DNA of 64,000 nt from a virus: IMG/VR virus record IMGVR_UViG_3300042894_005670; one strand, 5' to 3'. Position numbers and translations under genes: made by a program. The notes below the pieces were generated by a model, which made no database searches, was not told the DNA's origin, and worked only from the letters and a program-made list of their open reading frames with translations. Shown one piece after another: positions 25,443 to 29,483 of the stretch; the stretch's first letter is position 1; every line of letters starts with the position of its first letter.

Positions 25443-26099
25443 TTATGCTCCTGCCTTAGGTTTTAATAGTGAAAGTTCTTGATCCATGCTACGGTTGTGC
25501 TCGTTGCGTGGTCCTGTCCACACATTAGTCTTAGCTTCACCTGTTACACGATTAGCCCATAGTTCACAAAATGCGCTATGTGGGCTAGTATCGTACGTTT
25601 TACCGTTTTCATGACAGGTAAAAGTTCCATCTGCATTGACAGTAAAACTTACCCTAATAGGATTACAATTAGTATCATTTTTAGATTGGCTAAAGGTTTG
25701 TCCTGCTAATTCTGCCACACGATCACGTGATTTATTACTAGCAATAAATTTTACAGCAGCAGGTTCAAGCTCAGTTTGGTTAACATTTTGTTCACTTGCT
25801 CCGTATACTTCCATAAATTTTGATACACGCTCAACTAACATACCATCAGTATCTTCAAACCATTCACCTTGCATTCGTTCAGGCAATATAGCATGTAACA
25901 TTTTTTCAACTCTGCTCATACTATCCACTTGCCAATACTTAATCATGGTATAACCAATGGTAAACTTAGTACTGTTTAGTGCATTTTCTCTGCTTGGTAC
26001 GTTAATACTTTTGCCAACTTTTTTTTCAGTAAGTGAACTGATATCCTTACCGCTATAGTGATAATAGCCACCAACGTAAATATAACCTGAATCAGTCAT
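25443..26099 (-). CDS. GIY-YIG-like (T5orf172/MUG113) domain protein
   Basis: GYIYV, KVGKS, RE..LN, EKMLH and GEWF; start at MTDSG after GGAG. Confidence 0.75.
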   Translation of the reverse strand: MTDSGYIYVGGYYHYSGKDISSLTEKKVGKSINVPSRENALNSTKFTIGYTMIKYWQVDSMSRVEKMLHAILPERMQGEWFEDTDGMLVERVSKFMEVYGASEQNVNQTELEPAAVKFIASNKSRDRVAELAGQTFSQSKNDTNCNPIRVSFTVNADGTFTCHENGKTYDTSPHSAFCELWANRVTGEAKTNVWTGPRNEHNRSMDQELSLLKPKAGA

Positions 26100-26146
26100 A
26101 TGGGTAATCTCCATGTAAATTTTCGCTATTGTAGCAAAAAGATAAT

Positions 26147-26172
26147 AAAAAAGCACAGACTAGCTGTGCTTT
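26147..26172 (-). terminator. Rho-independent terminator
   Basis: AAAGCACAG-CTAGT-CTGTGCTTTTTT. Confidence 0.8.
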
Positions 26173-26502: not shown

Positions 26503-26793
26503 TTAGGCTTTTTGTTCTGCACGATTTTGTGCAGTCCAGGCATCCCAACCTGCCTTATACCAATCAATACTAAACGGATTCATTATTTTTTCAATTTTTG
26601 TATGTAAAAACTCTCTATTACAAGTAGTGATAATATTTGTAGTAGTTTCTAGTGCAGTATTTAAAAATTTACTTTGAGCCTCAATGTAAATTAACATATT
26701 ATTTTTGAGGTCAGTGTGCTTGACATATTTTTCAACAAATTGCTTTTTAGCATTTTGTACACTGTCAATAAAAAGTGAAGGTTGATTAATCAT
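26503..26793 (-). CDS. Phasin-like amphipathic helical protein
   Basis: FIDSVQNAKKQFVE..YIEAQSKF..A helical pattern; cluster context; family call tentative. Confidence 0.45.
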   Translation of the reverse strand: MINQPSLFIDSVQNAKKQFVEKYVKHTDLKNNMLIYIEAQSKFLNTALETTTNIITTCNREFLHTKIEKIMNPFSIDWYKAGWDAWTAQNRAEQKA

Positions 26794-27462: not shown

Positions 27463-27485
27463 AAAAAAGGCACCGAAGTGCCTTT
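27463..27485 (-). terminator. Rho-independent terminator with cUUCGg loop
   Basis: AAAGGCAC-TTCG-GTGCCTTTTTT. Confidence 0.9.
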
Positions 27486-27702
27486 ATACTGTTTGATATA
27501 CTTCATCAAACTTATTCAACGCTAACTGTCTAGCTAACCATAACCTAAATTTAATTCTTGGTGATAATTCATTATTTTCTGTAACTATTTTAATTCTAGT
27601 AAGATTACGTCCTACACTATCATCAAATACAAAAATTTCATAATCTTCATCAAAGTCACTTTTAGGCGTAAGCGGTACGTCTTTTCGACGTGCTAGAATT
27701 AT
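27484..27702 (-). CDS. Start-less 72-codon frame; putative -1 frameshift extension of the upstream peptide
   Basis: IILARRKDVPLTPK...LSPRIKFRLWLARQLALNKFDEVYQTV; no ATG/GTG, only a TTG near its end; begins at A_AAA_AAA and ends at the terminator. Confidence 0.55.
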   Translation of the reverse strand: MILARRKDVPLTPKSDFDEDYEIFVFDDSVGRNLTRIKIVTENNELSPRIKFRLWLARQLALNKFDEVYQTV

Positions 27703-27836
27703 TTTTTTGCGTCTTTTTTATCGTCTTTCTTAGCTTCTGCTTTAGGAGCGTCTTTCTTTTCTTCTTTCTTTGCATCTGCTGCAAATGCGCTTACTGCAAA
27801 AAGTGCAGCAAATAAGGTTGCGAATAATTGTTTCAT
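27699..27836 (-). CDS. Secreted K/D/E/A-rich peptide (45 aa) with Sec signal
   Basis: Not in track: MKQLFATLFAALFAVSAFA|ADAKKEEKKDAPKAEAKKDDKKDAKK. Confidence 0.75.
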   Translation of the reverse strand: MKQLFATLFAALFAVSAFAADAKKEEKKDAPKAEAKKDDKKDAKK

Positions 27837-27849
27837 GATATTTCTTTAT

Positions 27850-27913
27850 AAAAAAATGCTCTCTAATCCTTACGGACTAAGTTAATATTTCGCAGAGCAA
27901 CTTAATATTAACT
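27850..27913 (-). ncRNA. Candidate structured leader RNA (pseudoknot plus U-tract)
   Basis: 10-bp P1, 6-bp pseudoknot P2 and GUAA-capped P3, followed by U7. Confidence 0.5.
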
Positions 27914-27927
27914 ATACTATTACTATT

Positions 27928-27954
27928 AACGCATGAGTAAACAAAAGGTTTACA
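27928..27954 (-). promoter_or_regulatory. ECF-sigma-type promoter
   Basis: TGTAAAC-N16-CGTT. Confidence 0.5.
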
Positions 27955-29036: not shown

Positions 29037-29483
29037 TTATGCCTTTTTTGCCTCATCTTCAGTTAAAAAAGGTCCACTATACTCGTAGCGTTGTATAAAA
29101 ATATACTTTGGACAAAAAACTGTTTGCCAAACATCGTTCATTTTAATTTTAAAATATCCCGCAGCATGGTAACATTTACTCTTTTTTGATGTTGTATAAA
29201 CGTGTAACTTTCGTTTAACATCATACATATCATTGTATGTTTTTCCCTCAGTAGGCCATTTCGCAAAAGAAATATTATTATGGTGTTGTTTACGCTGTGG
29301 ACGTTCAAACTCAATTAATTTTGTTTTTTCAATAGATTTAAAATCATCAAAATGTGTGATTGAACCATCAATTTTTCTGAAATCAAAACCTGTACCACTT
29401 GCTTCTACATTACCGATTTTAGTAGTACCGTCTGTAACAACCCAAAACTGATTTTTAATAATTGGTTTAGCTTTTAGTATCAT
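29037..29483 (-). CDS. Conserved hypothetical phage protein
   Basis: SKCYHAAGY, FCPK and GPF motifs. Confidence 0.65.
   Translation of the reverse strand: MILKAKPIIKNQFWVVTDGTTKIGNVEASGTGFDFRKIDGSITHFDDFKSIEKTKLIEFERPQRKQHHNNISFAKWPTEGKTYNDMYDVKRKLHVYTTSKKSKCYHAAGYFKIKMNDVWQTVFCPKYIFIQRYEYSGPFLTEDEAKKA

Follow-up and report, generated by a model that had tools for sequence, protein, structure and literature searches.

Here, we provide comparative evidence that a short gene of an uncultured large phage is read in two frames. In the 64,000-nt stretch of viral DNA analyzed here (the window), programmed -1 frameshifting at positions 27702-27708 is the probable source of two exported pre-proteins of 45 and 117 aa, a reading for which no protein, ribosome-profiling or reporter data are available. 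The ribosomal nature of the shift, its efficiency, the cleavage of the signal peptide and export are inferred only. That a second, startless frame (ORF2) is reached from the first (ORF1) by a -1 shift at a run of seven adenines (A7) had been the core inference of a preliminary description of this DNA, and it is supported by the family-wide layout, the slip motif before the TAA, the junctions of fused homologues and purifying selection on ORF2.

Reexamination of the locus (Table 1) found ORF1, the A7 run, the ATG- and GTG-free -1 frame, the terminator and the position of the hairpin all correctly described. ORF1 ends in GCA AAA AAA TAA, and in the -1 frame the upstream TAA is followed by five codons and then by ATA at 27702-27700, from where the frame stays open up to a TAA at 27486-27484. 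Besides lacking ATG and GTG, ORF2 has a single TTG, which lies 11 codons before its end. This 72-codon frame is open within a region of 32% GC in which stops crowd both remaining reading frames, and no overlapping gene was seen on the opposite strand, where the plus-strand ORFs at the locus reach at most 41 aa. The terminator adjoins ORF2, not ORF1, and is conserved in seven related loci from other contigs (L001-L007), with a UGCG loop in L001 and L002. As a separate observation, this terminator (27463-27485) is palindromic, with A/T runs on both sides (AAAGGCAC..GTGCCTTTTTT), and is thus bidirectional in shape; it was scored on the plus strand too.

Table 1. Features of the recoded locus, with coordinates given as positions in the window
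Feature	Position	Strand	Description
ORF1	27836-27699	minus	45 codons + TAA; predicted signal peptide and Lys/Glu/Asp/Ala-rich tail (ADAKKEEKKDAPKAEAKKDDKKDAKK)
Predicted Sec signal peptide	27780..27836	minus	codons 1-19: MK, hydrophobic core, A-F-A then A-D
Slippery heptamer A_AAA_AAA, ORF1 frame	27708-27702	minus	immediately 5' of the stop
ORF1 stop TAA, then T	27701-27699	minus	3' limit of the shift window
-1-frame TAA	27720-27718	minus	5' limit of the shift window, width 19 nt
ORF2, -1 frame, 72 codons + TAA	27702-27484	minus	conserved domain (IILARRKD ... FVFDD ... GRNLTRIKI ... LSPRIKFRLWLARQLAL)
Terminator GGCAC-UUCG-GUGCC + T6	27482-27469, T6 27468-27463	minus	2 nt past the ORF2 stop
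Hairpin ACGTC-GAAAA-GACGT	27691-27677	minus	starts 10 nt 3' of the heptamer

A slippery heptamer ahead of an open -1 frame is not rare in this genome. Within the window, 32 of 453 ORFs of at least 30 aa carry an in-frame X_XXY_YYZ motif in their last 30 nt, and several of the 32 precede long open -1 frames. The pattern is frequent because neighboring genes overlap, and therefore proves nothing alone; judged from the sequences, what raises the locus above chance is the missing ORF2 start codon together with the comparative evidence. One such case is a 148-aa ORF at 29037-29483 on the minus strand, whose last 30 nt include an in-phase A_AAA_AAG with a 68-codon open -1 frame behind it; the gene downstream of it (29028-28837) has its own ATG, and the arrangement is most likely an ordinary overlap.

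Codon-aligned comparisons of ORF2 with its relatives gave dN/dS values of 0.12-0.5, with dS up to saturation, and substitutions fell preferentially at third positions of the -1 frame. Such purifying selection indicates a translated gene that has long been kept without a start codon. None of the 25 unique members of the family with the -1 layout has an ORF2-frame ATG between the upstream stop and the conserved C-terminal motif, and in 17/25 this stretch is devoid of ATG, GTG and TTG alike; a check for homologues with an ORF2 ATG of their own likewise found none.

Relatives of the locus were gathered by profile-guided scans, which returned 307 in viral contigs and 204 in metagenome contigs; 160 loci were fetched. 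The family signature is carried by 117 unique loci, comprising 25 with the -1 layout, 77 with a +1 layout and 2 in which both parts are in frame, the remainder being one +1-type locus with a broken ORF1 (L150) and others truncated at the 5' end. As the family sequences are related to one another, these member counts do not represent independent events. In a quick tree from an 86-column alignment, which was weakly resolved, frame layout was strongly clustered, and in-frame forms appeared in at least two places. ORF1 of L150 is cut by a TAA at codon 28 (about position 1500-1600 of its contig) and is intact in the close relative L146; the truncation could reflect a further break, a misassembly or decay of this copy. 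The family appears confined to uncultured material: neither blastn with the locus nor tblastn with ORF2 and with a homologue from the +1 clade gave a match among 50,697 records of cultured phages, and two scans of 185,579 cellular species genomes detected no relative. The sole cellular match, 26 residues in a Bradyrhizobium contig, was rejected as spurious.

Several relatives bear directly on the A7 run. Scanning viral contigs with ORF2 identified six loci from six different samples, all with A7-TAA and the same two frames, one subclade of which differs by 13% at the DNA level and has its ORF1 extended by an in-frame 6-nt insertion. L114, from a metagenome contig, shows A7-TAA and this layout too, with a different linker, whereas L007, whose ORF2 is 69% identical, ends ORF1 in GAA AAA AAG TAA and so places the classical A_AAA_AAG against the stop. 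Because A7-TAA recurs in independent assemblies (the window, the six viral contigs and L114), an assembly error at this run can be excluded, and no A8 was seen in any other assembly. Phase variation at A7 was considered and rejected, given that independent assemblies show no A8 or A6 allele and that most relatives have no such run.

A_AAA_AAA, A_AAA_AAG or A_AAG_AAG stands at exactly the same place, directly before the ORF1 stop, in each of the 25 unique -1 members. Their ORF1 endings are GCAAAGAAGTAAT in 18 members, GCAAAAAAATAAT in 5 (including the window) and GAAAAAAAGTAAT in 2, with A_AAG, A_AAA_AAA and A_AAA_AAG as the motifs that they contain. In one of them, L110, a -1-frame TGA abuts the heptamer, and for this reason a slip is possible there only at the heptamer itself. 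The stop context is TAAT in 25/25; in E. coli, UAAU is a strong termination context and should favor termination. The base preceding the Lys codons is A in all 25, although GCA makes up only 33% of the other Ala codons in the same ORF1s. By contrast, those relatives with the +1 layout whose ORF1 ends in (A/P)-K-K-stop have GCT or CCT before AAG AAG TAA in 45/45 cases, and in that clade nothing would be gained from slipping -1 where ORF1 ends. We regard this synonymous contrast, A in the -1 clade and T in the +1 clade, as the strongest single argument for a functional A_AAR(_AAR) motif, as far as sequence comparison can establish one. No other motifs are used as much in bacterial -1 frameshifting: A_AAG is by far the best tetramer in E. 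coli, and A_AAA_AAA and A_AAA_AAG together account for 72% of the heptamers in IS1/IS3 elements (PMC4066793). C_AAA_AAA alone gives 25-60% -1 frameshifting in E. coli (PMC1851650). Speaking against the proposed shift, slip motifs that lack a stimulator often perform poorly in this organism, where Z_ZZN tetramers without a pseudoknot barely exceed background (PMC4066793).

The same 117-aa fusion could in principle arise without any ribosomal shift, if RNA polymerase slipped and added one A at A7, generating A8 mRNAs whose product would be identical to the ribosomal one. A suitable run is present in some members, being A7 in the window, L001-L006 and L114 and A7 followed by G in L007 and L110, but productive transcriptional slippage sites usually have 9 or more A/T. 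A/T runs are nonetheless known sites of slippage, and E. coli genes contain fewer A7 runs than expected (PMC4066793). We consider polymerase slippage improbable: 18 of the 25 unique -1 members have GCAAAGAAG, with no run of more than three A's and an unchanged layout; the candidate site of the +1 clade has only 4-5 A's; and the X_XXY_YYZ phase and the adjacency to the stop are kept even where the run ends differently (A7-T in the window, A7-G in L007), features relevant to ribosomes and not to a polymerase. Since GCAAAGAAG, the commonest junction, contains no homopolymer, transcriptional slippage cannot be the general mechanism, though it could contribute at the A7 of the window.

The conserved domain is also found joined to ORF1 without any shift. 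In-frame fused homologues (the proteins P0014, P0015, P0004 and P0016 and the loci L096 and L142) share the order predicted signal peptide, linker, KK-V-(I/V)-L-A-R-R and domain. Their junction, which reads ...AKK-VVLARR... in P0014 and ...TKK-VILARR... in P0015, equals the trans-frame junction predicted for the window, where ...DAKK would be continued by IILARRKD. At the DNA level, GCA AAG AAA GTT GTG CTA GCA of L096 corresponds to the two-frame junction (GCA AAG AAG TAA TAC TAG CA) plus one base. A single fused frame is not the rule in the family, as it is limited to about 2 of the 104 unique loci with an intact 5' part and three more found in the protein search. From these homologues we infer that the ORF2 domain is normally an exported one, and that in the window it would be exportable only as a fusion to ORF1, export itself being an inference.

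An alternative is that ORF2 encodes a separate, non-exported protein, initiated at the non-canonical codons ATA (27702) or ATT (27699) or by reinitiation at the AUAA overlap (cf. AUGA). Stop-start overlaps are common in phages, every -1 member does have ATA or ATT after the stop, always in the TAAT context, and initiation at these codons is not formally excluded from sequence alone; in L007, a TTG two codons further on is used by gene callers (P0001). We nonetheless give this possibility little credence. The TTG of the L007 type is not conserved, and no Shine-Dalgarno-like sequence was found in the 20 nt upstream of ORF2, whereas the next downstream gene has GGAG. The I/V residues that such a start would specify belong to a motif in the interior of the fused homologues, all of which carry predicted signal peptides, and a start at ATA or ATT would yield the domain without one. 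In the +1 clade, conserved ORF2 homology already begins 36-75 nt before ORF1 stops, which would make reinitiation unusable there, and the choice between GCA and GCT that tracks the frame would be left unexplained. Least credible is a dead gene, in which a one-base deletion in a single-frame ancestor left a signal-peptide stub and an untranslated remnant with no bridging between them: the junction is indeed one base off that of the in-frame L096 and the protein has no known function, but ORF2 remains an open frame subject to purifying selection across 25 (-1) and 77 (+1) unique lineages with synonymous sites saturated, the slip motif is conserved at synonymous positions, and a terminator follows ORF2.

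In the larger sister clade (L022-L095, L120-L175; e.g., L049:2317-2728), the domain lies in the +1 frame of ORF1. In all 77 valid +1 members, ORF1 contains a single in-phase AAA AGY, located 36-75 nt upstream of its stop, whereas no AGY occurs in the tails of ORF1 in the -1 clade, and in L022 an ORF2-frame TAA lies immediately 5' of AAA AGY. A +1 slip of tRNA-Lys at this site would join PAK to V/A-x-L-L-R-K, paralleling the KK to V-I-L-A-R-R junction. In the interval from AAA AGY to the ORF1 stop, variability is low and follows neither frame clearly, being mixed over both ([9,2,10], [10,3,10]), while downstream of the stop it falls at ORF2 third positions ([23,9,4], [16,7,3]); the 36-75 nt stretch therefore looks dual-coded. 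On these patterns, AAA AGY is probably a conserved +1 recoding site with an unknown trigger. Starvation at a hungry codon was considered as the trigger and discarded, given that AGY makes up 51-58% of the Ser codons in flanking phage genes; as AGY is not rare in these phages, what sets off the +1 shift is unexplained.

The frameshift that we favor in the window would act on a gene product with a conserved N-terminal part. A signal pattern was read by eye from the ORF1 translation (MK, LFATLFAALFAVSAF, and A-F-A followed by A), and the same n-h-c pattern, then a K/E/A/P-rich stretch, occurs in every ORF1 of the family; the N-terminus has weak PHROG matches to lipoprotein and secreted families. 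In the -1 clade the ORF1 tail is nearly invariant, with an entropy at codon positions 1 and 2 of 0.13-0.25 compared with 0.95/0.57 in ORF2, and ADAKKEEKKDAPKAEAKK has hardly changed although ORF2 of the same clade has drifted to 40-50% identity. A side observation concerns codon choice in this tail (27699-27779): its Lys pairs are almost always AAG AAA, with AAA AAA or AAA AAG only at the terminal slip site, and third-position entropy at the Lys-pair codons is 0-0.6, a preference that, from codon usage alone, looks like avoidance of extra slippery runs.

We could not identify a conserved RNA stimulator, an element that bacterial frameshift sites often have but do not require. The hairpin that the preliminary description had placed downstream of the slip site exists, but as a stimulator it finds no support: it is not unusually stable compared with shuffled sequences (z = -0.81), it is reduced to 3 bp in L007, and RNAalifold found 0 consensus pairs across 10 sequences of the -1 clade. 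It is probably a by-product of the conserved R-R-K-D-V codons, which make up its stem. The locus had no match in Rfam, an upstream GGAG-like (Shine-Dalgarno-like) element is neither present nor conserved, and the window holds no tRNA gene that could serve as a frameshift suppressor. Of the candidate stimulators, the adjacent stop codon alone is conserved, and its position right after the motif, along with the conserved ORF1 tail, favors a stop-adjacent Lys slip. It is possible, though untested, that a polybasic nascent chain adds to the shift. Taken further, the Lys-rich linker may be a recoding hinge at which the stimulator is the polybasic nascent chain, possibly together with Sec targeting, and not mRNA structure. 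This idea is conceivable because conserved RNA stimulators are lacking and the Lys/Glu-rich peptide has varied less than the domain that follows it, yet we hold it to be speculative and rather doubtful. On this view, one clade crosses the common junction (linker, then V/I-x-L-A/L-R-R/K) by slipping -1, another apparently by shifting +1, and a few scattered lineages need no shift there. If true, such a hinge would be a phage or bacterial counterpart of nascent-chain-tuned frameshifting, and the proportion of short peptide to full protein would then depend on the state of the export machinery.

We propose the following sequence of events for programmed -1 frameshifting in the window. Ribosomes would start at the ATG at 27836 and make the signal peptide and the Lys/Glu-rich tail, reaching A_AAA_AAA with the UAA stop next in line. 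Those that remain in frame would terminate and release the 45-aa pre-peptide, of which 26 aa would remain after signal-peptidase cleavage between AFA and AD. A fraction would slip back by one base, the Lys tRNAs re-pairing on the A run, and continue with ATA ATT CTA and onward to give a 117-aa pre-protein (98 aa when mature) in which the exported linker bears the conserved C-terminal domain. The fixed ratio of the two products given in the preliminary description finds no support in the sequence. The likely stimulators would be the slippery Lys codons and the stop in the A site (a 'shifty stop'), with RNA structure seemingly uninvolved.

The setting of the locus differs from that in which conserved phage frameshifts are usually found, and here, too, the earlier claim of a context other than that of tail chaperones held up. 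The window is AT-rich (~34% GC), and the minus strand carries nearly all of its long ORFs. It encodes a 906-aa DNA polymerase whose identity to jumbo-phage polymerases, e.g., those of Sinorhizobium phage Phosso and Agrobacterium phage Atu_ph07, does not exceed 50%. Neighboring genes encode a helicase, an exonuclease, an endonuclease, a polymerase subunit and a 2OG-Fe(II) oxygenase, among many small unknown ORFs, placing the locus in a replication/early-type region of an uncultured large phage. Several further features of this neighborhood were observed. Upstream of ORF1, the minus-strand region 27850-27954 contains nested inverted repeats, has a T7 run immediately ahead of the ribosome-binding region, and is almost identical across L001-L007. 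A 96-aa ORF (26503-26793, minus), located between two small conserved genes, is missing from the otherwise syntenic L004 and, judging from that comparison, is a small-gene indel in a variable region. A 237-aa ORF (25443-26156, minus), two to three genes downstream of the locus and also present in L004, has a T5orf172/MUG113 (GIY-YIG-like) domain (Pfam E = 7e-7) and may be homing-endonuclease-like.

ORF1 could not be assigned to any PHROG or Pfam family, ORF2 and its homologues belong to no family in Pfam, NCBIfam or PHROGs, and a word-indexed protein search gave no match. An exhaustive HMMER search recovered a small family sharing the C-terminal signature (..ELSDYVKFRLWLARQLAL..); three of the matches (P0002, P0003 and P0011) were Ig-repeat proteins, which we discarded as spurious. 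Querying the ESM Atlas with the fused homologue P0014 yielded nothing more specific than generic 'secreted protein/lipoprotein' clusters, below 0.8. As modeled with AF2 (pLDDT 73), ORF2 contains two short strands (IILAR and IFVFD) and a C-terminal amphipathic helix (residues 49-70), the latter being the sole confident part of the model, and a Foldseek search of the model against the PDB found nothing below E = 5. The function is unknown; our guess of an early-expressed protein acting on the envelope or in the periplasm, for example in superinfection exclusion or envelope remodeling, rests only on the signal peptide, the amphipathic C-terminal helix and the position among replication/early-type genes.

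Among known systems, the tail assembly chaperone pair G/GT of tailed phages (G_GGA_AAG in lambda) resembles the locus in organization, as it too is a conserved phage pair whose startless second ORF is entered through a slip shortly before the first one ends, with a short and a long product and a layout kept across diverged sequences; most of its members use -1 and a minority use other frames. It is unrelated in family, location and role to the gene described here, which is predicted to be exported, lies in a replication/early-type region and has a Lys-only slip site abutting the stop. Tail chaperones make up 2397 of the 2476 annotated phage frameshifts in SEA-PHAGES (PMC10885494). IS1/IS3 transposases (orfA-orfB) are dominated by the same motifs A_AAA_AAA, A_AAA_AAG and A_AAG (PMC4066793), and their functional long product is likewise a trans-frame fusion with a zero-frame stop close by. 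In IS3 members, however, a pseudoknot or hairpin downstream is the usual case, and a Shine-Dalgarno-like element occurs upstream in some; no such element is conserved in the family studied here, and our protein is not a transposase. In E. coli dnaX (tau/gamma), a tandem tRNA-Lys slip at A_AAA_AAG similarly gives two products from one gene, but the shifted dnaX product is short, as its frame stops almost at once, whereas here it is long. The dnaX shift relies on a Shine-Dalgarno-like element upstream as well as a strong hairpin downstream, and neither was found at the locus. A bare AAA-AAA run in the Gateway attB1 site of pDEST17 (C_AAA_AAA) shifts -1 without a designed stimulator (PMC1851650), and therefore a motif of the type found in the window can work alone, even though the pDEST17 case is an accidental vector artefact and not a conserved natural gene. 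The alphavirus 6K/TF protein offers a -1 frameshift inside a translocon-targeted protein, where nascent-chain forces have been reported to tune efficiency (10.1101/790444, PMC8682741), but it belongs to a eukaryotic virus and uses a U_UUU_UUA site and an RNA stem-loop, so that the likeness bears only on the speculative nascent-chain idea. The mechanism proposed here is thus of a known kind, while the gene family and its two-directional recoding are undescribed as far as the literature that we searched shows.

Conserved programmed frameshifts in phages have so far been represented almost only by tail assembly chaperones and a few single cases. The locus described here is an entry to a second large family, with more than 100 unique members that are uncultured, mostly from freshwater and often from jumbo phages. 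For annotation this means that gene callers lose the conserved domain or give it an arbitrary GTG or TTG start, so that current annotations lack the full-length protein that is predicted to be exported. The family also constitutes a natural slip-site experiment, with three Lys motifs, synonymous codons that separate the -1 from the +1 clade perfectly, and rare in-frame revertants, and could show the reach of a stop-adjacent Lys slip without RNA structure. Finally, it flags an abundant phage protein that is predicted to be secreted, together with a conserved and likewise putatively secreted Lys/Glu-rich peptide, both of unknown function.
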